In this document: piece by piece, positions 19,103 to 62,899 of the stretch | Numbering within the stretch: the first letter of the stretch is position 1 | Layout: every line of letters begins with the position of its first letter | Assembly: GCA_013239625.1 (NCBI GenBank) | Contig: MU053431.1 | Location: 2,134,485 to 2,198,484 of the forward strand | Origin: Lama guanicoe | Taxonomy: Eukaryota | Length of the DNA stretch: 64,000 nt | Reading direction: 5' to 3' | Notes under the pieces: model-generated | What the model saw: the letters and a program-made list of their open reading frames with translations, nothing else | What the model was told of the DNA's origin: nothing | Databases searched by the model: none | Program-made: the position numbers and the translations under genes

Positions 19103-19162
19103 ATGGCCAGCCCGAGAACCAGGAAAGTCCTTAAAGAAGTCCGGGTGCAAGATGAGAACAAC
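19103..19162 (+). CDS. ARFGAP1: ARFGAP1 exon 2 (first coding)
   Basis: gccATGg, [20 protein letters not shown], donor gtaagc. Confidence 0.95.
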
Positions 19163-22100
19163 GTAAGCGTCTGCTTTTCTCGGGTGGGCCTCACGAACCT
19201 CTCAGAAGTTGCTTGCAGCCTGTCACGCATGGTTGGTCTCTCAGCCAGCCTCCCTCTGTGCCTCTTGGGGCCACCCATCGGGCCCTGCCCTGAGCCACTG
19301 GGTGAGCTGCCTGTGGCTCTCCCTGCAGGTGTGTTTTGAGTGCGGGGCATTCAACCCTCAGTGGGTGAGTGTGACCTACGGCATCTGGATCTGCCTGGAG
19401 TGCTCGGGGAAGCACCGCGGGCTCGGGGTGCACCTCAGGTCAGTGCCCGCCTGCTCCTGCTGCGCCGTGAGCCAGGGCGGGGAGACAGGCCGGGACGGGG
19501 TGATGGGCCAGGGAACGGGCCTGGGTGGGGAGACGGGCCGGGGCGGGCCCCTCACCGGCCAGCTCCACGGGACCACAGTGCACAATTCAAGACTGTTGGG
19601 GGCTCGAGGATGCCCCGTGCTGGTGATGAGGCTGACCCTCTGGTGTGCAGCTTCGTCCGTTCCGTCACTATGGACAAGTGGAAGGACGTGGAGCTGGAGA
19701 AGATGAAAGCCGGTGGGAACGCTAAATTCCGAGAGTTCCTGGAGTCTCAGGAAGACTATGACCCCCGGTGGTCCCTGCAGGAGAAGTACAGCAGCAAGGC
19801 CGCCGCCCTTTTCAGGGACAAGGTGAGGACAGGCCTGCAGGCCCGTCGGCTGCTGCCGCGGTTCTGGGAGTAGAGGCTCCTGACACACCACGGGGGCTGT
19901 GTGCAGCCCCAGGCAGACAGGACCTGCGGCCCCATCTTGTCGCAGCCAGGGGACGCCCATCATTTAGGGGGCAGAGAGTGGGGCCCCAGGCATTTGCGGT
20001 TGGAGCCACACTGACCAAGAACTCACTCGTGCTCTGTCTGTCGTGAGGCCTGGTCTCAGCGTTTAGACTGGGTGGGCCCCTAGCCCGTGGCTGAGCCAAA
20101 GTGGCTGCGTGAGGGGCACGGGGGCGCTAGAGCAGGTGCGCCCACGGCTGCCCCGACGGTTCCCGCGTCCCCTTGGCAGGTGGCCACCCTGGCCGAAGGT
20201 AGAGAATGGTCTCTGGAGTCATCGCCTGCCCAGAACTGGACCCCACCTCAGCCCAGGGCACTGCTGTCCACTGCCCACCGGTAACTTCTCTGGCCTGCTG
20301 GCTGGAGGGTGCTGCTGTCAGCCTGGCCCTGACCCTGACTGTGGCTCAGGGTCCCCGTGCTATTGTGGCAACGATTCGATTGTCAGCTGTTCTAAAGGCA
20401 GAGGGAAAACCAACTTTTTAAGTTCCATATTTAAACTTCCAGTAAAAACTCAACCATTAAGGGCATGTTCAAGGTAGAGCATACCGTCCCCGGTTCCTCA
20501 GCGTAGAGTCTCCAGGTTTGTGCCCACGACACTCAGCAGCTCTGGAGGAATCTGCCTGGCTGGTGGTCTGGTCTGAGGCTTGCCCACCTCCCCAGGGCAC
20601 AGGAACGCAGGGCGGGCTGACCCCATGGAGGTGTCTCGGGTCCTCTGGCACATAGGAGACTCGTGTTCTGGGGGGTTGGCATCAGGAGAGGCTCCCTGTT
20701 TACACCAGGGTTGCCCTGCAGTCCTCCTCCTGTGGCAGGAGTCCCGTCGGGATGTCTCCAGACCACTGCCAATGTGCTTCCTTTGGCCTCGGTCCCTCTG
20801 GCCTCCCTGTGGACGCAGGCAGGCGTGGAGCCGCTGGGGAGCCTGCCCGCCAGGCTGCCTCAACCTCCTCTTGCTCCTTGCCTCCTCTGCTCAGAGGTGG
20901 AGGCCAGCTCAGCCCAGGTGCTAGTGCTTCAGAGGAGCTGGGTGTCATCAGGTGGGCGTGGCAGCACCTCCACGACCATAGCTCCTGCCACGTGTGCCTG
21001 CCCTGTTGGTCTCACCGACTTCTGACTCCGTTTCAGAGCCCCTGGCCAGCCGCAGAGCTCCACCGCTGCCTCCGACAAGGCTTCCGAAGACTGGCTGAGC
21101 GACGGCTCCTGTCGAGGGTCAGGCCTCGGGGGGCGCTGGGGGGCTGGGGGCCTGCATGGACCCAGCTGTGGAGGGTTTGGTCCCTCGGGGCAACGCTGCC
21201 CTGGTGAGGGTGGGCACTGCTGCTGCTTCACAGGTGCGGAGTCGGCAGGCCTCACTGGCCAGCCTGGGTTCGAGTAGGGGCTTGAGTGGAGAGAAACCCC
21301 TTAGAGACGATCACTTCTAGGAACACTTAAGAGGAACAAATGAAAGTAGGTCCCCAGAGCTGTCGGGTTGAGCCACTGTGACGCTCCCTGCGGTCGCTGG
21401 CCGTCAGCTCCGGGTCTCGCTGAGATTCTCAGGCCAAGTGCAGCAGGGGGGCCCCGTCCCCGAGCGCAGGAAAGCCTGACCCCCACGCGGAGGGCCGTGG
21501 GCGCACCTGCACGCCCTCCAGGGGCTCCGTCGGGTCCGGGCGCCCCCACCCCACGGCTCTCGGGAGCATCACGGCTGCTGCTTGTGCCCCCTCCAGGGCC
21601 CAGGAGACCCGCTATGTGGGCTTTGGGAACACCGCGCCACCTCAGAAGAGAGAGGACGACTTCCTCAACAGCGCCATGTCGTCCCTGTACTCGGTGAGGA
21701 CGCTGTGCTGCCCCGTGCCACCCGTGTGCGCCCGGGGGGCCTCCCGCAGCGGGCGCGGCTCCCGTCCCCTTCGGGCCCCTCCCCCTTTCCTCCGCTGACG
21801 CTTCCTGGAGCGCGGCTTGCTCAGTTCCGTTACTCCAGCTGCAAGACACGTAGTTTGGATTTAATGAGGTGCGTTTCCTCCAGAGAATTAATGCCCCGTG
21901 TGGAGAGCCTCCCTGGGCCACTTTGGTTCTGGGTGTCACTCTGTGGCTCTGTCGGTGGCAGAGGTGACAAGCTCAGCCGCACAGGCTGGGCCACCGTCTG
22001 GAGGTGGCTCCTGGTCACACGTGTGCCTTCCCCCCACCCTCGGCCACTCTAGGTCACACCATAATTTTCCAGAGAAACTTCCTTTTTAAAACACGTTCTA

Positions 22101-25100
22101 TTTGTCACAACCTGGTCTACAACGCCGGTAACTGCAGCCCTCCCAAGCGTCTCTGGACGCTGTGCACAGAAAGACGGACGTGCTCTGTGTGCTGAGAGGA
22201 TGGGGTTGAGGGCTGGGGGGCCTGTAGGGGACTGGAGGCTGGGCTGGTCCCAGGCTGTGTGAGCACAGAGCCTCTGGACGGAGCCCAAGGATGGGGTCCA
22301 GACTTGGGCCATGGGAGGTCGCCATCACCACTGCGTACGCTCCTTGAACCACATGTGTCTGTCCCCCAAATGAACGGGCATCTCACTCAGAAAATATTTA
22401 AGCCCCATTTGCCCCTGAAGCGCCTGTAGCTGGATCTGGGGGCTCCTGGGGGAGCGCTGGGGCCCCCAGCGTTGCTCTCCCGGGCGCTCTTTGTGGGTTG
22501 TTGGCCTGAAGCCTGCTGTGAGGAGATTGTCTTCTGGAAACACCCTCCCAGGACCGCAGTGTATTTGTGTCTCCCATCAGAGGGGCCGGTGGGCCAGGCA
22601 GTGGGAGGAGCCGGCTCACCTCAGTGGTGGGGGCTCCACCCTGGGGCCCCGCCCTCCAGCCCTCCTGGTCCAGCCACGTGTGGGGTGGGGACGGTCCCAC
22701 AGCGTCCAGCTGTGTGCGAGGCAGGTGGTGTGGGTCAGAAGAGCACCTTCCATGTTGCTTCCTCTCAGGGCTGGAGCAGTTTCACCACCGGAGCCAGCAG
22801 GTTCGCCTCGGCAGCTAAGGAGGGTGTAAGTAGCCTGTCCCACAACACAGCCACGCGGGCTGGAGGGCTGGGGAGGACGGAGGGTCCTGAAGGGGCTCGG
22901 GCCGCACATCTGTCTGCCCCAGGAAGCCTGGTGAGTGGCCCCTGCCCTGCCCTTGGCTGGTGCCCTGAGACTGGGCGGGTCCTCAAGGCCCCGCGGAGCT
23001 TCTTTGCTGTAATAGTGGGTCTTGTGCTGGCTGCAGAGGAGTCGCTGGCAGGGCCTGGTTGGTTCCAGGAGAAAGAGGTGACAGGGTGGCCTCCACTCGC
23101 CCCGGTGAAGCAGTATTGGCCCTGCAACCCCCCGAGTGTCAGCTCCCGGGTCTCCAGTGCAGTGTAGGCAGTCCGAGTTTCCACTCCCAGCCTTGCCTGC
23201 TCCTTGGCCTAAGGCGAGGGATGACTGGGGATTTTGTCAGGACAGATGAGTGGACACTGGGCAGTGACCTGGGCGAGAGCCGGGCGGGAAGGATCAGGCC
23301 AGAAACCTGTACGAGGATGTCATCCTGGAGGGGAGACTGCAGCCAGCATGGCGTGGTGGTGACAGGAGGGGTGCGAGGAGGGGAGCGCGGAGCAGGGATA
23401 GAAGGCTGCCTGGCAGGCTGACCCAGGGCACACGGGCCCAAGGGAGCCCAGGACAGGAGTTTCTGAAGGCCAGAGCACAGCTGCCCAGCCAGCCAGTGGG
23501 AACCCTGGGGTTGGAGTAGAGTCTGGGGCACATCTCGGGTGTGCCCCAGGGGCCACTGTGCCCGGCGTCGGGCAGCGCCACCCATGCTCCTGAGTCACCT
23601 CTGCCTGTTTTCTCTGAGGTCTTGTCTCCCAAGGGCGCTGCGGTGGGGGGTCCAGGCCTGCTTGTTTTGAGAGTGGCCCGGGTGCCGGGCCAAGGTGAGA
23701 GGCCTGAGTGGACTGGGCTTGTGGGAGGCCTGTGGGCCCCTGCATCCTGGACTGGGGAGGTCAGCGTTAGCCCTGCTCCCTCACACCGGGTGCTGCACGG
23801 GCCCCCCTGCCCTGATGGCCTCCTGGGGGGAGCTGAAATCGTGTGCATCTCTGAGGGCCCCATAGCGCTGCTGTGGGGTGAGCACAGGGCCTCGTGGCCG
23901 TCGGGAGACAGGCCTGGGACTGATCACCTGTCTGTACCCCAGGGAGCGGCAGCCCCAGTGGTCAGCATCAGGACAGTAGACCAGACACCAGGCGTCTCTC
24001 TGTTTTCTTTCAGGCTACGAAATTCGGATCCCACGCAAGTCAGAAGGTAACGAGGGAGGCCTCCATGTTGGTGTGTGAGGCTCCCGGCCGGCCTGCCCTC
24101 CCTGTATGCTCGGGGCCGGGACACTCCTGCAGGCAGCTCGGGCAGGCCCACACATGTGGACTTGTCTCCCAAGCTCCCATGTCACAGGGGTCTCTTCAGG
24201 TGCCTGCGGGTTTAGCAGGTGGAGTAAGGCTGTACCTGCTTAGGGTCTGTGGGGCCAAAGTCGTCACCTGTACCTGGCAGCTGTGGGCCTCTGTACCGTT
24301 TGCCTCATAGGGAGGGAGCAGGCGGTGGCCCCGGGATGGGGAGAGAAGGCTCAGTGTGGCTGAGGCTCTGCTGTGTCTGGGCAGCCCCAGGCGGGGTGAC
24401 CCGGGGCCTCCTGTAGGACACTGGGGCTGAGTCCCGCAGAGACAGGTCCTTGTCCCCAGTTAGCACCCTCTCTTCTTGTGGATGGTGTCTTGGGTCCTGG
24501 TGTTCATCTTTCCAAATCTTGGTGTGCAGCCCCCATGGTCCACATGTGGTGCCAGGCTCAGGCCGGCCCGTCCTCCGGCACTGGGGGTCAGGACTCAGGA
24601 GGGGCAGCCACAGAGGCTGTCCCAGGAGCCCAGGGCCACATGGGCCCCTCGCACCCTGAGGAGGGGTCCCAGCCCCCGCCTGGGAACCTTCTCTGAGCCC
24701 CTACCTCGGGCTCCTGAACCACCCACTTGCGTGGCCCTGGACTTGCAGAGCCAGGACTGGGGGCTCCATGGGGCCCTGCCAGGGTGCGTCCTCTTGTTGC
24801 CAACGCTGCTGCCACCGCCTTGCTCTCTCTCTCTCTCCGTCGTCTCCGCGTGCTGCCTGGGTAAAGTTCTGGGGTTCCAAGCAGCAGCCCGAGCTGGTAA
24901 GGCCGTCCGTACCGCTGCATGCCCCCATCCACGTGGCACGAGCTCTGCTCCCCAACGTCCGCGCTGTGGCCCGTGTCGGTGCTTCCGTGTGCTTGCGCTC
25001 TGATCTGCTGCCGATTTCCGCCTGATCTGTCCGCGGCGCTCGGGCACCCGTGTCGTGGGCAGGAGACATGAGACCGACCCAGGACTTGGGGCTGCTGCTG

Positions 25101-28100
25101 CTGCCGGGGCTGAGGGGCCCGGGTGCTTGGAGCTTCTTGGCGAGATTTTCACTTTGTGGTTTAATTATTTTCAGCGAAATTATCCAAAGGAGTCCTGTCC
25201 AAGTGGCCAGGGCCCCACACTGTGTTGCCTCCCCCAGTCCTGCCCACCCCGACCTGAGCTGCCGGCCGGGCTCATTCCCCCCACCCCCTTTTCTCCAGGC
25301 TCCGGCAGGGCCCTGGAGGGCAGGTGGGCTCGGGACCTGCCCGTCTGTGTCCCGGTGGGGGGTCGTTGTCGGCACACGGGCTGTTCTCACGGGATGGGTC
25401 ACGTGGGCTCCAACGGGGAGACCCTGGAGGTGGCTGCTGGATGGTGTAGGCTCCCAGGGGCTCGCCGCCGTCCCGGCCCCTTGCCAGAGCAGGTGGGCCA
25501 AGGGCGGCAGCCTCTGGCCTGCGCGCATCTGCCCAGGCGCCACCCGCCGTGAGAGCCTGGTGCGTCGTGTGCTGCCGGGCTGCTCGCTGGCCGCTGCTTC
25601 CTATCTGTGCGCAGAGCTCGCAGTGACCGTGCTGCTGTGTCCCAGGATGGACCTGCCGCCAAGCTCACTTGATCTAATGAAGTCTTTTCTTCTGACAGGC
25701 GTCGGAGTTGGGGCATAGTCTGAACGACAGTGTCCTCAAACCCGCCCAGGAGAAGGTAATGCCACGACCCACGGTGCTCCGCCACGTGCTCCTTGCAGCT
25801 CCTGTGGGCTTTTTGGGGGTGGCTGGTGCGGGGGCTTTGCTCCGGGGTGTGGACTCCTGAGGGTGCCCCGTGTTCCCGGCGCCCTGTACTTGTGGGTTCA
25901 TCCCCAGCATTAGCAGCGCCTGGCCTTGCCCTCTGCTGCTGGGTCGGGGAGAGCCCTGTCCCGTGTGGCTGGGTGTGCCCCCTGGCTTCTCGTCCTGGCC
26001 AAAGTGCTCAGAGGAGACCCGGATGGGCTGAGAGAGGCTTTGGGGGGCTGGGACTTAGGGGACAGGGCCAGCTTGTCCTCAGAAGGTTGTGGGTGGCGTC
26101 GAGACCACCCGGGGAAAGTCCGAGTTAGACCAGCCTGGGCTGTGGCCTGGCAGCCCCACTTCCTCTCACTTCTGGGGAGGAGCAGCGTGGCGTGGAGGCA
26201 AGTTCCGTGAGCAGGCGCCAGCGGGCGTGTCCTCTGTCAGGGGCGGGCAGCGGGCCTCTGCCCCTCGGCTGACGGCGCTGTTTCAATCCACCAGGTGAAG
26301 GAGGGAAAGATTTTTGATGATGTGTCCAGTGGGTTCTCTCAGTTGGCATCCAAGGTAGGGCAGCCCCGCCTGACACTTGGGCATAGCTGGAAGCCAGTCT
26401 CCATATTCCAGGGTGCCGGGAACCGCGAGCAGGAAGGGCCCGGGCGCTTCTTGCCCCGGATGGTGTCTGCGGCCTGCGTGGCCTCTGGGACACGAGGAAG
26501 GTCAGGTAGATGCTCCGGTGCCGGTGGCTCGAGGAATCTGGAAACAGCTGGACGGGCACCTGTTACAGCCACTAACCTGTTGCTTCCTTTCTTTCTGTCC
26601 TTGTCTTGCTGCTGCCGACCTCTCCCCGGTGAGTGTGCCGGGGCGGCCTGCCCACCTTCTCTGCCTTAGAGCCACAGTGGGCAGCGCGTCTGTCTGCTTC
26701 CCAGCACGAGGCTCTGCGTGGGGCGGCCGTCCGCCCAGGGAGCCTCGCAGCCACCTGCTGGGGCCACAGCCTCTCGCTGTGCACACGGCGGGCGTCCCGC
26801 CTGCCCCGGGAGACTCCATCCCGGGTGAATGGGCGCGAATTCCAGGTCTTTAGACACTGTGCTCTCGGCGCCAGAGCCGTGGCTGAGCTGCCCCATGTCT
26901 CCTTACAGGTCCAGGGGGTTGGCACTAGGGGATGGCGGGACGTCACCACCTTTTTTTCTGGGAAAGTGGAGGACGCCTCGGACAGGTATGCCGGGCCTCT
27001 CGTCCTGATGTAAGCCCCCCTTTTCTGGTATTCTTCCTTGGGGTCTCTGGGAGGCAGATGTGTCACCCCCAGGGATTCAGAGGTCACAGGGCAGAGGCCC
27101 CCCAAGCCCTTGACCTCTTACTCTGAAGCTCTTCCTTGGACCTGGCAGGAGCTGCCGCTGCCCAGGGCTGGAGAGGGAGGGAGGGTCTCAGGCGGGGAAC
27201 TGGGTGTGGAGACGAGGGGCGGCTGGGCTCTGATCCCACCTCCTGGGGTCTGGAGCGCTCACTGGCCCGCTCGAGGCTGTGCCCGGGCCTTCCTGCTGGA
27301 ATCCCAGTCTGCCTGGCTTTCTGGTTCTCTGACCCCAGGGGGAGCCTGGGATCTGATGGGGGAGATGGCCAGGGGCTGGGCCAGAGCCGTGGCCGCAACT
27401 GCCGTGGCGGTGCCGACGGCCTGCCCTGGGGCCGAGGAGCGTCCCCCTTGCCAGCAGGCAGGGTGCCGCAGTGCTTGCTTGGTCGCCCGCTGTGGGACCG
27501 TGCAGCTGCAGTTCTGGTGAGGGGTTTTCCATCCGGAGCTGACCCTTCACGATGCCGAGGCCAGGTCTCTGGGTTTTCTTTTGCCCTTAATCATCGCAGA
27601 AAACCAAGATCTGCGTGTTTCCCGGATTTCAGCTCTGTAGCTGGGTCTCCTCTGCTTTGGAGCGAGAACAACAGCTCCACGACCCCGCCTGGTGGTGGCC
27701 GAGCATCCTGGGTGGGATCTCAGACTCGGCCTTGAGCCGTCTCTGGGGAGAAGTGGGGAGAAAGCCAGGCGGCTCAGGGCCCCTGCAGCAGCTTTTCTGC
27801 TTTTGTGAGAGCCACTCAGAGGCCCCTTCTCTGTCACAGACTCCCGGAGGGCCAGAGCTACCAGAACAGCGGTGGGGACAACTCCCAGAACACCATTGAT
27901 CAGAGCTTCTGGGAGGCCTTTGGGACCGCTGACCCCGCCAAGGCACACCGGTCCCCGAGCAGCGACAGCTGGACATGCGCGGACGCCTCAGCCGACAAGA
28001 GGAGCTCGGACAGTTGGGACGTGTGGGGCTCGGGCTCCGCGTCCAACAACAAGAACAGCGACAGTGGCGATGGCTGGGAGGCCTGGTGGGGCGGCGGGGA

Positions 28101-58699: not shown

Positions 58700-59847
58700 G
58701 CCCTGGGCACAGGGTGGGGAGCACAGGGCCTGCTGGGTGGGTATGGGGCACAGCCTGGGGAGGCTGGGGACAAGCTAAGGGGTCTGCTCTGGGTCCAGGG
58801 CTGGGGGTACGTAGAGGGAGGGGGCGAGACTCGGGGCTGCAGCCAAGCCCTACACCCATCTCTGCAGGGTCTCCCAGGCACGGCGGGGGCCAGGGGCAGC
58901 GGTGGGGAGCGAGGCCCCCCTGGGGCCGTGGGGCCCACGGTAAGTCCCCTCTCTACCCAGCCAGCCAGCCAGCTGGAAGTGGGGGACAAACGTGTGCGGA
59001 CTTGTCCCCACTGACCCCTTGGGGACCTCCCATGGCCAGCAGCTTTGAAACCAGGACGGGCAGAAAGCTCAGGGCAGAGAGAGCCCAGGGCTGCCCCCTG
59101 CCAGGCCCAGGACAGGCAAGGTCCGGCAGGAGTGGAGCTTGGGCCTGGGGGGCTTGGGGGCAGGCCTGGGCCTGCAGGCTGCGGGGAGGGGGCCTGCAGC
59201 AGGTGGAGGAAGGCGGGGCCCGGGGAGCAGGGAAGCCGGAACAGGCCTGGCTGCCTCCTTCTGGAAGCAGGAGAGGTGGGTCCTCTGCCCACTGAGGAGT
59301 CCCTGGATTAGTTCTGGCACGAGGCCTTCACCCGGCCCAGACAGAGCTGGGCATGAGGTCTGGTGGGGGGCGGCAGTGGGGTCCAGGCATTTCTCCTTTT
59401 CTCCCACTCAGGGGCTGCCGGGGCCCAAGGGCGAGCGAGGAGAGAAGGTGAGTGTGGGGTGTCTGGGGCCCAGGCCCAGGGAGGCACTGACCCCCATGGT
59501 GGCTGAGACCTCGCCATGCGGTCCGTCTTCCCTTGCAGGGCGAGCCACAGTCCCTGGCCACCATCTACCAGCTCGTGGGCCAGGCCTGCGAGTCTGCCAT
59601 CCAGAGTGAGTGCCCCAGCCTCCTCATGGGGACCCCAGAGCCTCCCATGCCCCCCACCCCTGCCAGCTCCGTCCTCCCTGGCACCTGGTCATGCGCATAC
59701 CCAGCCTCACGAAGCCATTCTGGGCCATGTGCCAGAGAGGGAGGGAGGGTCTCCCCGCCTCCTGCTGACCGCCTTCCCCCACCAGCACAGGTGCTGAAGC
59801 TCCACTCCCACATCCACAAGGGCGCCAGGCCCCCCGTGCTCGCATAG
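33291..59847 (+). CDS. COL20A1: Collagen alpha-1(XX) chain (FACIT): signal peptide, FN3, vWA, 5xFN3, TSPN, COL2 helix, NC2; ~1259 aa, C-terminus shortened
   Basis: 34 phase-compatible GT-AG exons total 3780 nt; MIDAS DGSWS..T..TDG, FN3 repeats, TSPN, 36/54/72/96-nt Gly-X-Y exons. Confidence 0.95.
34914..35244. repeat. 61-bp minisatellite, ~5.3 copies, COL20A1 intron 2
   Basis: cagagtgc recurs at 34942, 35003, 35065, 35126, 35187. Confidence 0.95.
35723..35833 (+). CDS. COL20A1: COL20A1 exon 3 (FN3-1)
   Basis: [23 protein letters not shown]...VKPMA. Confidence 0.94.
36370..39060 (-). mobile_element. Cluster of old L1M fragments
   Basis: T-rich block with L1 motifs (gaagctctgttattaggtgcataca, ttcttgaaggat...ctgggtatagaatttt); internal boundaries not resolved. 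Confidence 0.7.
39240..39560 (-). mobile_element. MLT1A-like LTR
   Basis: gagggctccaccctcatgacctcat...ttgggggttaggatgtcagc...aaatgttcagtcca. Confidence 0.7.
40115..40258 (+). CDS. COL20A1: COL20A1 exon 4 (FN3-1)
   Basis: [26 protein letters not shown]...ARREFV. Confidence 0.95.
40482..40625 (+). CDS. COL20A1: COL20A1 exon 5 (linker)
   Basis: [12 protein letters not shown]...SQDLPTF, donor gtgagt. Confidence 0.88.
41936..42094 (+). CDS. COL20A1: COL20A1 exon 6 (vWA)
   Basis: [25 protein letters not shown]. Confidence 0.95.
42437..42556 (+). CDS. COL20A1: COL20A1 exon 7 (vWA)
   Basis: LTQYSG...[10 protein letters not shown]. Confidence 0.95.
43107..43271 (+). CDS. COL20A1: COL20A1 exon 8 (vWA)
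   Basis: [11 protein letters not shown]...[11 protein letters not shown]...VFAV; AAG acceptor. Confidence 0.95.
43967..44131 (+). CDS. COL20A1: COL20A1 exon 9 (vWA)
   Basis: [14 protein letters not shown]...RLICQKIQG. Confidence 0.95.
44402..44571 (+). CDS. COL20A1: COL20A1 exon 10 (FN3-2; start ambiguous 44402/44411/44414/44417)
   Basis: [20 protein letters not shown]...GGTPRE. Confidence 0.88.
44833..44962 (+). CDS. COL20A1: COL20A1 exon 11 (FN3-2)
   Basis: VVVEGP...[11 protein letters not shown]...GLVTT. Confidence 0.95.
45276..45560 (-). mobile_element. L1MB-like 3' end
   Basis: cagctttactgaga...tttaaagtgtccaagtcagtggtttt...agaaaccctgcaccc...aaatgggatcatacagtgtgtggcctt. Confidence 0.75.
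45823..45968 (+). CDS. COL20A1: COL20A1 exon 12 (FN3-3)
   Basis: [24 protein letters not shown]...EEEARE. Confidence 0.95.
46065..46188 (+). CDS. COL20A1: COL20A1 exon 13 (FN3-3)
   Basis: [23 protein letters not shown]. Confidence 0.95.
46355..46494 (+). CDS. COL20A1: COL20A1 exon 14 (FN3-4)
   Basis: [23 protein letters not shown]. Confidence 0.95.
46944..47073 (+). CDS. COL20A1: COL20A1 exon 15 (FN3-4)
   Basis: [29 protein letters not shown]. Confidence 0.95.
47337..47479 (+). CDS. COL20A1: COL20A1 exon 16 (FN3-5)
   Basis: [16 protein letters not shown]...GDGKAHE. Confidence 0.95.
47619..47751 (+). CDS. COL20A1: COL20A1 exon 17 (FN3-5)
   Basis: [29 protein letters not shown]. Confidence 0.95.
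48111..48253 (+). CDS. COL20A1: COL20A1 exon 18 (FN3-6)
   Basis: [25 protein letters not shown]...GPEKS. Confidence 0.92.
48447..48576 (+). CDS. COL20A1: COL20A1 exon 19 (FN3-6)
   Basis: [29 protein letters not shown]. Confidence 0.95.
49720..49755 (+). CDS. COL20A1: COL20A1 exon 20 (36 nt; alternative start 49717)
   Basis: [11 protein letters not shown], cagcag acceptor, donor gtaggt. Confidence 0.88.
49925..50030 (-). mobile_element. MIR fragment
   Basis: ttcacagtggagg...tcacttgtccaaggtcacagc. Confidence 0.5.
50760..50898 (+). CDS. COL20A1: COL20A1 exon 21 (TSPN)
   Basis: [19 protein letters not shown]...DAQLTRRA. Confidence 0.95.
50919..51060. other. Assembly gap (142 N)
   Basis: N run flanked by G-rich repeats. 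Confidence 1.
52836..52978 (+). CDS. COL20A1: COL20A1 exon 22 (TSPN)
   Basis: [24 protein letters not shown]...GVLLD. Confidence 0.95.
53188..53297 (+). CDS. COL20A1: COL20A1 exon 23 (TSPN)
   Basis: [11 protein letters not shown]...IFFGSFHK. Confidence 0.95.
53764..53922 (+). CDS. COL20A1: COL20A1 exon 24 (TSPN)
   Basis: [19 protein letters not shown]...RSSSAS. Confidence 0.95.
54021..54098 (+). CDS. COL20A1: COL20A1 exon 25
   Basis: [26 protein letters not shown]. Confidence 0.95.
54605..54691 (+). CDS. COL20A1: COL20A1 exon 26 (NC3/COL2 junction)
   Basis: [29 protein letters not shown]. Confidence 0.95.
55277..55330 (+). CDS. COL20A1: COL20A1 exon 27 (54-nt Gly-X-Y)
   Basis: [18 protein letters not shown]. 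Confidence 0.95.
55480..57010 (-). mobile_element. Degenerate L1M ORF2 fragments
   Basis: T-rich block with antisense L1 ORF2-like motifs (tttacatcacctgcaaa...cttcactgtctcctttccaatt); interrupted by a SINE. Confidence 0.55.
56771..56898 (-). mobile_element. tRNA-derived SINE (camelid vic-1 type) with ~9-bp target-site duplication
   Basis: Minus strand ggggagggtatagcccagtggtggagcg...ggttcgatcccagtgcctcca (A and B boxes), then (taaa)n tail; flanks tcaagcagt 56759-56767 and tcgagcagt 56900-56908. Confidence 0.85.
57143..57238 (+). CDS. COL20A1: COL20A1 exon 28 (96 nt, helix interruption)
   Basis: [32 protein letters not shown]. Confidence 0.9.
57315..57368 (+). CDS. COL20A1: COL20A1 exon 29
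   Basis: [18 protein letters not shown]. Confidence 0.95.
57492..57545 (+). CDS. COL20A1: COL20A1 exon 30
   Basis: [18 protein letters not shown]. Confidence 0.95.
57846..57899 (+). CDS. COL20A1: COL20A1 exon 31
   Basis: [18 protein letters not shown]. Confidence 0.95.
58570..58660. other. Assembly gap (91 N) followed by a poly-G run
   Basis: N run, then ~30 G. Confidence 1.
58868..58939 (+). CDS. COL20A1: COL20A1 exon 32
   Basis: [24 protein letters not shown]. Confidence 0.95.
59412..59447 (+). CDS. COL20A1: COL20A1 exon 33
   Basis: [12 protein letters not shown]. Confidence 0.95.
59539..59605 (+). CDS. COL20A1: COL20A1 exon 34 (COL2/NC2)
   Basis: [22 protein letters not shown], donor gtgagt. 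Confidence 0.9.
59786..59847 (+). CDS. COL20A1: COL20A1 exon 35 coding part, ending at an early TAG
   Basis: [19 protein letters not shown], phase 1 acceptor ccag. Confidence 0.75.
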
Positions 59848-60735
59848 TGAGGCCCAGCTCCCTGAGGACAGAGGTGCTGGCCCCCTGGGGAGGGGTCTGC
59901 GGGGACTGCTGCCCTTCCCCCAGTCCAGGGGCTGGCTGCTCGGTGTGGCCCAAGGCAGCCCCTGCACCAGGCCTCCTGCCCTCCCAGGCTCCAGGTGGGG
60001 AGACAGGCCCATGAGCCCACACGGAGCCGGAGCTGCCTGGCTTCCTGGGGTCCTCAAAGTGGCCCCTTCTCCTGGGAAGCCTGGGCTAGGGACACTACCC
60101 CGCCCAGTCCGCCCCTGCCTTCCCTGCTCCGCCCCCCTCCTTGGCTGGGATGACCAGTGACCTTGTCCTGAGTCCATCCGTCTGAGTAGGGCTGCGGTGC
60201 TGCTCACAGCTCGGAAGCTGAGGTGGATGGAGAGGCCGATTAGGGGAGACGGGCCTCGTGGCCTCGATGGGGGAGAAAGGAGATGGGTTGGAGTGGGACT
60301 GTGGCAGGCTGGCCAGGAGGACAGCTCCGCATGGAGGGCCGGGATGGGGTGAGGATGGGGGTGGGGGGCAGCAGGGGAGATTCGAGGGCCCCCTCTTGCC
60401 CTGCCGGGGGCTGTGCCTCTGTGGGGAGAGGGTCCCCATCCATCAGCGCCCGCCAGCGTCCTGCAGATACTGCCTTTGCCAGAACCGCCCCCTCGCTGTG
60501 CCCAGGTGCTATCGTGGCACCCACATAGCCCCCTCTCCTGCCCCCCACCTCCAAGACAATGACTGATGCCTATTTGAGGCCAGAGACCCCTGTCCCCTAG
60601 CTTTCAGCCCCGACCCGAAGGCTGGCCCTAGGAGGTTCAGGACCCATCTTCCCCTGGGATCAGAACAGGGCCCCTGAGAGAGGAAACCTTGGTCACCTGC
60701 ACCGTGGGTCCTAGCACATCCCTCCTTCCCCTTGG

Positions 60736-60799
60736 CTGAGCCTGGAGCCGTCGGTCAGATGGGCTGGGAGTGAGCCTCAGGGACCCCCGGCAGGAATGG
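60736..60799 (+). pseudogene. COL20A1: Decayed former terminal coding exon of COL20A1
   Basis: EPGAVGQMGWE* after a pyrimidine tract ending ttgg rather than ttag. Confidence 0.65.
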
Positions 60800-60917
60800 G
60801 TGAGCCCCGCCTGCAGGAGGAGTGAGGGGGGTTGCTCAGTAAGGACAGACGGTGCCGGTTCGGACAAAGCAGCGGGGGTTGGGGCAGCAGCGGGGCGTGT
60901 GAGGCTCATGGCCTCAG

Positions 60918-61050
60918 GGGAGCCCGGCAGGACTCCAGTTGGGTCCAAGAGGCTGAGCTGGCCCAGTGGGAACCCAGGGAGGCCCTGATCGGGGGTCAGC
61001 ACAGTAGGGAGGGTGCAGCAGGTGTGCACCACAGCAGACACCTGGCCCAG
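60918..61050 (+). pseudogene. COL20A1: Fossil Gly-X-Y exon (lost COL1 domain of collagen XX)
   Basis: Gly or one-substitution-from-Gly codons at every third position, with one stop and one frameshift. Confidence 0.6.
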
Positions 61051-62899
61051 GCTGGTGTGCGGACCTGGGCGGGGGGCATGAGGGGGCGGTTCCCTGAGGG
61101 GACATTTCATGTGGACACGCCTGGGTCTGGTCCACCATGCTGGGCAGGTGCGTCCTGACAATGTCAGCTGTCCACTGCCTCCCCCAGACCTGTCCACCCT
61201 TTTCTCCTGACAGGATGGACCCTGTGCTGTCCGAAGTGAGCCCGCACTTCCCCCTGGATCAGGGACACCAAGAGCGGCTGGAGAAACCTGGAGGGGAGGG
61301 AGAGGAGACCTTCGCTCTGTGCAGTTTCCTGTTCAGATAAACCAGAATGCTTGTCACGGGCAGCGGCTGCGCATTCCTGGGCCCCACATCCATTCGTCCC
61401 TGTCCCAGGCTCCCCGCCGTCGTCGCTCAGGAGCCGCTCTGTCCTGCACGGCCTCCCTGTTACCTTAGGGCTCACCCCCTTCCTGTGAGGCCCCGGGTCG
61501 TGCTGCCTGGTCCCTCCGGAGCTCCGACCCTGCTCAGGGGTCCTTGGCCTCTTTGCGTCACCTGGGTAGGAGTGGGCTTTGAGGACGTGCCCGACCCACC
61601 CTCAGAGGCTGACGTGACCATCGTGGGCGGCCCCTCCCCTAGCGTCGTGGCATCCGGCTCTCCCCCCAGTGCTCAGGCTCACGGGGACCCCCGACCACCT
61701 GGCCCCGCCCTCCACCCGCCCACCAGCCCGGTGCCACAGTTGGTGCAGTGACCACTGCCCTTGGCCAGCCGGTCCCCCTGGGAGTCTCGCCAGCTCTGGG
61801 CCCTGGGGCGGCACCTGCTGTGGCCAATTCAACGTCGAGTCGTTTTCTAAACACTAGAATTTGGTGCGGGGGCGCCTTCAAACACAGTGGCCAATGAAGG
61901 CCCTGAGGTGACTGTGGTGCAGAGAAGGAACAGAGTGGGGGACCATGGGACGTTCTGGGCAGGGCCGGGCTGGGAGGACGGAGGAAGCCGAGCGCAGGCT
62001 GGGGACGGGGGCAGCCCGCTGGAGCTTGGGGTGGGCCTGTGATGGGGGGGTCTGGGTTTTGTCCTCAGAGCGACTGGAAGCCCCTGCCCGGGTTCCGAGC
62101 AGGGGCTGCTGTGTCCTGGCATCTGTTGAAACAGCCTGTAGAACAGACCACAGGATGCCGGGGAGTGGGACCTCGTCTAGCGTCCACTGAGAGGGAGGGA
62201 GCTGGACTGGGGAGACGACGGCTTGGAAGGGGCGGGCGGGGCCAAGCCCTGGCAAGGTGAGGGGACAGCAGGTCCAGGTGCCCTCGATCAGCCAGGCAGT
62301 GCAGGGGAGGGGCCAGGTGTGCTGGCGAGTGTGGGGTTCACACGGCAGACATGTGGGGGCCACCCTCTCAGAGGTGAGTGGATGCTGCGGTGCTGGTGCC
62401 CCTAGGAGGGAAACAGGCTGGGGTCATCCCAGGACTGAGCCCCGTGCGTCTCCAAGGCCAAGCGGGGCCGCTGAGGGTGGCAGCAGGAGGGCATGGACCC
62501 TGCTGAGACCCCCTGTCCGGATGCTCCAGCGAGGGGCCGATGAGACGGCGCAGGAGCTGGGGAGTGTCTGGTACAGGCGGCAGGTGACACCTGTCCCAAG
62601 AGCCGCCGTTGTGGGAAGGGAGACAGGCAGGAGCGGGCACTGGCTCCCAACGCCCTGCCCAGCAGCCCGGCCTGGGGGCTCAGGGTGGTGGAGAGAGACC
62701 CCCCGGGCCCTGGCCCTTTACAGTCTGACCTGCGCCCTCAGCTGCCTGCACAGCTGTCTACAGGAAGCCCTTACAGGACAGTAAACGTCCCTCCCGAATC
62801 TCTCCTCACATGCACACACACGCGTGCATCTCCCTGTGCGTGCACACACGGCGCCACACATCCACACGCACAGCACATCCTGGTGTTGGGAGATGAGTC

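Follow-up and report, generated by a model that had tools for sequence, protein, structure and literature searches.

Near the 3' end of the collagen XX gene of the guanaco, an intronic stretch had been predicted, from its letters alone, to be a molecular fossil of the last COL1/NC1 exon, which raises the question of whether an exon that the protein no longer contains can still be recognised at its old place, and of when it was lost. The window analysed in this study is a stretch of 64,000 nucleotides. The gene had been named correctly: COL20A1, which holds the stretch, occupies positions 33291-61239 of the window, with ARFGAP1 exons upstream (19103-26986) and, on the minus strand downstream, a nicotinic receptor subunit gene, presumably CHRNA4 by synteny. 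The vWA exon showed 100% identity to an alpaca model and 96-98% identity to camel models, and the 401-nt region around the stretch had a single genome match, which was its own locus. ARFGAP1 and COL20A1 were fused as one protein in ibex, sheep and one rodent model (P0018, P0498, P0501, P0110), which is either an annotation artefact or read-through.

COL20A1 models were gathered by homologue and representative searches and cluster look-ups, with the best 120 or 150 matches taken per search, and those that reached 700 aa and contained an NC2 motif were counted (225/263 placental, 13/16 marsupial and 132/137 non-mammal models listed). The counted models include many isoforms and are thus not independent species, and they comprise a single, truncated elephant model for Afrotheria and no model from Xenarthra. 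In non-mammals, the tail runs in the order NC2, exon A, exon B, exon C and a short last exon, and exon C encodes one triplet, a five-residue interruption, ten triplets, GxCxxxxC and about six residues. The boundaries of exons A to C were inferred from exon-skipping and read-through isoforms, and the exon architecture and phase 1-1 were confirmed by the COL12A1 and COL14A1 exons of the guanaco's own genome (171 and 156 nt). A passage of PMC10381214 describes GXCXXXXC as characteristic of FACITs and as needed for trimerisation. Among the listed models, this motif was present in 122 of 132 from non-mammals, in the single platypus model, in 8 of 13 from marsupials and in none of the 225 from placentals, so the absence of the exon from placental models was anticipated rightly, and its expected place is the gap that holds the stretch. 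One macaque model carried an unrelated CxxxxC.

The glycine counts followed the same division of clades. At the platypus glycine positions of exon C, chicken, turtle, lizard and frog kept 13/13, marsupials 7-9/13 and placentals 0-1/13; of the 12 glycines of exon A, these non-mammals kept 11-12, marsupials 8-11, placentals 4-6 and camelids none, while the COL2 glycines stood at 35-46/46 in all 24 models examined. Exon C was intact in frog, sauropsid and platypus models, and CxxxxC was kept in 12 of the 13 listed marsupial models, from seven species; the marsupial models P0407, P0408, P0426, P0428, P0432, P0434 and P0437 keep it in the form C-E-P-x-G-C. The marsupial COL1 thus appears, at the level of these models, to be an intermediate stage, with the cysteine pair surviving longer than the helix. 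The loss had been proposed to be pan-mammalian, a proposal contradicted by the intact platypus exon and by the 12/13 listed marsupial models that keep the exon and both cysteines; because domain content differs clade by clade, the loss is better described as staged and placental. Moreover, many placental models still include exons A and B as coding sequence, with their glycines degraded, which indicates that COL1 was not lost in one step. Primate and rodent models have a stop in exon B, ruminant, whale and pig models skip it, and camelids have a stop in exon A. The human end in exon B fits the C-terminal peptide used in PMC9032593, as given in an excerpt of that paper. The case that the gene models make for a staged loss of COL1/NC1 in therian collagen XX is stronger than the case for the fossil.

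In the guanaco, all features of the tail lie on the plus strand. The NC2 exon (59539..59605) is intact, matches the camelid models P0002 and P0004 exactly and is conserved across placental and outgroup models. Exon A, encoding the end of NC2 and the start of COL1, was placed at 59786..59873 by frameshift-aware alignment, and camelids carry two deletions in it, of about 29 and about 30 nt, relative to warthog and bat. A TAG stop at 59845-59847, where the dromedary model P0004 terminates, is the second, upstream truncation that had been foreseen. Camelid models either end at this stop or splice from NC2 to the terminal exon, and camelid collagen XX would therefore be without any COL1 residues. 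Exon B, the middle of COL1, is dead at 60736..60799, where it was located by matches to human, cat and bat exon B: its acceptor reads GG, it has a 14-nt deletion, and its donor GT is intact at 60800. It scored 29 bits with human and 26 with cat, compared with shuffle maxima of 15 and 17, and 16 bits with bat compared with 14.5. The 14-nt gap recurred in alignments to cat, bat and fur seal, and the remnant was matched by 34 of 157 placental tails. The skipping of exon B in ruminant, whale and pig models as well suggests its loss in artiodactyls.

The terminal exon has its coding part, which includes a stop and a Cys-Cys pair, at 61214..61239, as placed from placental models, and forms the end of models P0002, P0003, P0005 and P0006. 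Its acceptor, at 13.2 bits, is the strongest within the gap. Compared with the outgroup last exon by codon profiles, it gave p 0.14-0.23 on sequences that are short, and it is either a shifted frame of that exon or new. A weak polyadenylation-like hexamer, GATAAA, follows at 61336, and neither AATAAA nor ATTAAA occurs on the plus strand up to 75000. The terminal exon ends 90 of the 225 listed placental models, mostly with Cys-Cys (of the G-x-x-P-C-C-x-E type), and its users include bats, carnivores, horse, pig, ruminants, whales and tarsier; the Cys-Cys pair could serve as a substitute disulfide site. The gap from the exon B remnant to the terminal exon is 414 nt and contains the stretch, and a 156-nt exon within it would leave 110 and 150 nt on its two sides, in a gene whose introns measure 76-1812 nt.

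Read in triplets from 60941, the stretch has the first codons GGG, AGG, TGG, GGG, GGG and TGA and, after an 8-nt step, GGT, AGT, GGT and GGT; the six Gly codons and the four codons one first-base change from Gly that had been reported are all there, with the preceding cag at 60915-60917. If reading starts one base later, at 60942, true Gly codons open five triplets in a row, and once a single -2 gap is allowed, eight of ten triplets start with Gly (p 0.026-0.068). This periodic core (60942..61029) contains a TGA stop at 60954-60956, the -2 gap near 60988 and GVH at 61021-61029 in the position of GxC. Since a shift by one base gives true Gly codons, the four near-Gly codons are partly a frame effect, and the frame and the -1 lesion of the original prediction are not supported, the best profile frame lying one base off. 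In that earlier frame the length did not match either, with nine triplets compared with ten in the COL12A1 and COL14A1 exons of the same genome. A resemblance, noticed by eye, of that frame without its shift to marsupial exon C was considered and rejected (p 0.33-0.37).

The periodicity proved borderline when set against chance. The reported pattern appeared in 3.2%, 6.0% and 6.6% of mono-, di- and trinucleotide shuffles (500 each) of the interval 60801-61214, which is one base off the true gap, and in 2.8% and 1.4% when only a -1 shift was allowed; the shuffle test that had been proposed for the Gly periodicity thus returned the pattern in 1.4-6.6% of shuffles. It was also present in 7 of 228 real non-exonic tiles, which overlap by half; where the G content was at least 0.38 (19 tiles), 4 tiles had it.

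Nucleotide profiles built from 41 outgroup tails were aligned to the window with gaps, and the exon A profiles, used as the control, ranked first to third in the window. With the sauropsid and the pooled non-mammal exon C profiles, the best fit in the gap was 60910..61063, with a single 2-nt gap, so that the candidate remnant of the last COL1 triplets and the NC1 cysteine motif spans 154 of the expected 156 nt, holds ten triplets and places GVH on GxC. The core gave p 0.014 (non-mammal), 0.018 (mix) and 0.042 (sauropsid), and across all 18 tests a family-wise p of 0.118 and a combined p of 0.054. Its score was equalled by 5 of 265 real tiles and by 1 of 64 G-rich ones. When the true triplet order was compared with permuted orders, the two pooled profiles gave p 0.0125 and 0.0225, and such specificity was absent with the marsupial, platypus and sauropsid profiles (p 0.60, 0.21 and 0.07). 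In simulations of decayed exons, likelihood ratios were 1.5-7.7 for the core score and 0.1-2.1 for the whole exon.

Several other comparisons gave no signal at the stretch. Profiles of the closest outgroups, marsupial-only and platypus-only, gave p 0.19-0.64; neither the cysteine tail nor the 5' head of exon C gave a signal alone with the profiles; and chance profile scores elsewhere in the window reached 12-20 bits, compared with at most 7.2 at the stretch. Protein-level alignment gave p 0.05-0.45, COL12A1 and COL14A1 exon DNA from the same genome aligned to the stretch no better than shuffles (p 0.46 and 0.93), a Pfam search of the stretch in two frames returned no match, and in a tblastn search of the window with the bullfrog C-terminus, Gly/Pro noise obscured any signal. 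Of ten aligned tails, five were uninformative on the stretch or at shuffle level, including those of a titi monkey (P0091) and fruit bats (P0098, P0518). Read-through models from goat and muntjac could be aligned over the stretch with gaps of tens of bases, which, as far as such alignments go, establishes the presence of orthologous non-coding DNA but no more than that. Genome matches to platypus (n=56) and marsupial (n=5) exon C included none in or beside the window. About 263 kb upstream, a collagen exon with a 50% match to platypus exon C (G000:C866:1871056-1871193) probably belongs to another FACIT gene, presumably COL9A3 by synteny. The expectation that non-mammalian COL20A1 exon C would fit here is therefore borne out in part: the best fit does put GVH on GxC, as proposed, but the family-wise p is 0.12, and the cysteine tail taken alone gave p 0.67-0.88. 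Because of that family-wise value, and because the platypus-only and marsupial-only profiles gave no signal, the stretch is a candidate fossil rather than a proven one.

The borders of the candidate exon were also examined. The cag ending at 60917 scored -2.4 bits as an acceptor, compared with 5.9-16.8 bits for 27 real acceptors; the profile start at 60910 is preceded by CAT (60907-60909), and a donor GT at 61064, at the end of the profile fit, is absent. Faded splice sites are expected in an old fossil. Furthermore, the supposed start of exon C is overlapped by a segment (60911..60932) that repeats 22 nt of exon B (60774-60795) in direct orientation at 86% identity. This repeat had p 0.035-0.045 in shuffles and was found in 7.5% of 93 real tiles, and it may reflect chance, collagen-codon similarity or a small duplication.

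Taken together, the comparisons point to the stretch as probably a neutrally decaying remnant of exon C in a camelid COL20A1 intron, a judgement that also takes in our own estimate of about one half for the prior chance of a skipped exon leaving a remnant. A doubtful but serious alternative is that it is ordinary G-rich intron from which exon C was deleted or in which it decayed, with GG and GGG runs in 41% G, helped by the exon B repeat, making up the pattern. The frequency of that pattern in G-rich tiles (4/19) and in shuffles (1.4-6.6%), the family-wise p of 0.12, the lack of both a pyrimidine tract and a donor at the stretch, the closest outgroups without signal and the repeat spanning the supposed exon start are all as this explanation would have them. 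However, it leaves to coincidence an exact exon length with one gap, GVH on GxC, triplet-order specificity at p 0.0125-0.0225, likelihood ratios mostly above 1 and the location of the stretch at the expected position.

Exon C might instead lie elsewhere, either downstream, for example at 62520-62677, with the Cys-Cys exon newly recruited, or with its 3' end as the terminal exon itself. Marsupial-weighted profiles give the segment 62520-62677 a score of 14-15.5 bits, higher than in the gap, but this is the level of the chance maxima (12-20 bits) and its alignment is without cysteines; the 24 kb scanned downstream gave chance-level matches only. The unproven descent of the terminal exon from the outgroup last exon (p 0.14-0.23) and the resemblance of the terminal S-P-C-C-L-E to marsupial S-G-C-L-L-E speak for a displaced exon, whereas profiles ending at 61230-61250 score -7 to -20, on which an exon C ending at the terminal exon was rejected, and the C-tail compared with the terminal exon gave p 0.52. 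We consider a position elsewhere improbable. Least credible of all is a rarely used alternative exon that encodes a non-collagenous C-terminus. It could draw on the AG at 60917, a GT at 61055, a 110-codon open frame (60826-61155) and the goat and muntjac models that read through the region, but the acceptor is far below all 27 real ones, the goat and muntjac frames differ, large gaps separate both from the camelid sequence, and the camelid stop in exon A lies upstream whenever exon A is used. A search for sequencing runs listed 19, and the five recorded as RNA, with word shares of 0.05-0.11, carry no weight as evidence.

If the stretch is the remnant of exon C, the following course of events may be proposed. 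Selection on the COL1 helix would have been relaxed in therians, and NC2 would have made the COL1 rod dispensable once the role of the rod had lapsed. Splicing of exon C would then have stopped on the placental stem, a step that leaves the reading frame unharmed, since each of exons A, B and C is of phase 1-1 and so dispensable in splicing, and the DNA of exon C would have stayed in place and gathered substitutions and indels. Exon C would have been dead first, and exons B and A later in some lineages, the later cuts of the tail differing between a stop in exon B, skipping of exon B and a stop in exon A. The resulting chains are predicted to trimerise via NC2 and to fold COL2, with neither the COL1 rod nor the disulfide knot, and placental chains would not bind fibrils as collagen XII does. 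We tentatively extend this to a wider and rather speculative claim, namely that placental collagen XX, including that of human, may no longer be a fibril-associated FACIT: its COL1 rod would have decayed in therians, its cysteine-knot exon would have died on the placental stem and left this fossil, a new Cys-Cys terminal exon would have taken its place in many orders, camelids would be without COL1, and a row of dead exons would stand as the record.

The role of NC2 in this scheme agrees with excerpts of previous studies, in which NC2 is reported to drive the trimerisation of collagens XIX and IX (PMC7034273, PMC12562938). A review, in the portion consulted, gives collagen XX two triple-helical domains (PMC11945623), and by the gene models this description fits chicken and platypus, not placentals. 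The function of collagen XX has been inferred, in a passage of PMC9032593, from the C-terminal structure that it has in common with collagen XII, which is the fibril-binding part of FACITs, and an excerpt of PMC13467375 calls that function poorly understood. If the proposed loss is true, chick-based inferences on human collagen XX need revising, and COL20A1 would be a natural test of whether a FACIT that has lost the COL1/NC1 knot can trimerise by NC2 alone, marsupials providing the intermediate. The fossil exon itself would carry little functional weight; it would date and explain the loss. A full-text search, with the chick cloning paper, the NC2 papers and supplements outside its scope, listed no paper on a truncation of mammalian COL20A1; since the chick cloning and NC2 papers lay outside that search, specialists may know that human collagen XX is without COL1, and its short tail is plain in public protein records.

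Compared with known systems, the stretch is closest to exon C of COL20A1 in platypus, birds, reptiles and amphibians (P0379, P0331, P0264), with which it shares the gene, the place in the exon order, the 156-nt length with one 2-nt gap and eight of ten glycines in register. Unlike that exon, it has no usable splice sites, a stop, a frameshift, no cysteine codons and interruption residues that are unmatched. In marsupials (opossum, devil, tammar, Dromiciops, possum, antechinus and dunnart), the same exon already has reduced helix glycines, but it is coding and has both cysteines, and its profile matches the stretch no better than shuffles. The last COL1 exons of COL12A1 and COL14A1 in the same genome (L002, L003) have the exon C architecture and phase 1-1, whereas they are intact and coding, and their DNA does not align with the stretch. 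As a FACIT, camelid and placental collagen XX retains FN3 and vWA (Pfam), COL2 (glycines 39-46/46) and then NC2, and is without GxCxxxxC at the COL1/NC1 junction (0/225 listed placental models) and, by glycine counts, without a C-terminal COL1 triple helix with interruptions. Dead exons in live genes are known as pseudoexonised exons, in which a frame-symmetric exon is skipped and decays while the gene stays intact, and the neighbouring exon B is a clear case. A dead exon in a live gene is thus known; unlike other such exons, the one considered here carried the motif described as characteristic of its family, and what is new is a FACIT losing that motif in steps.
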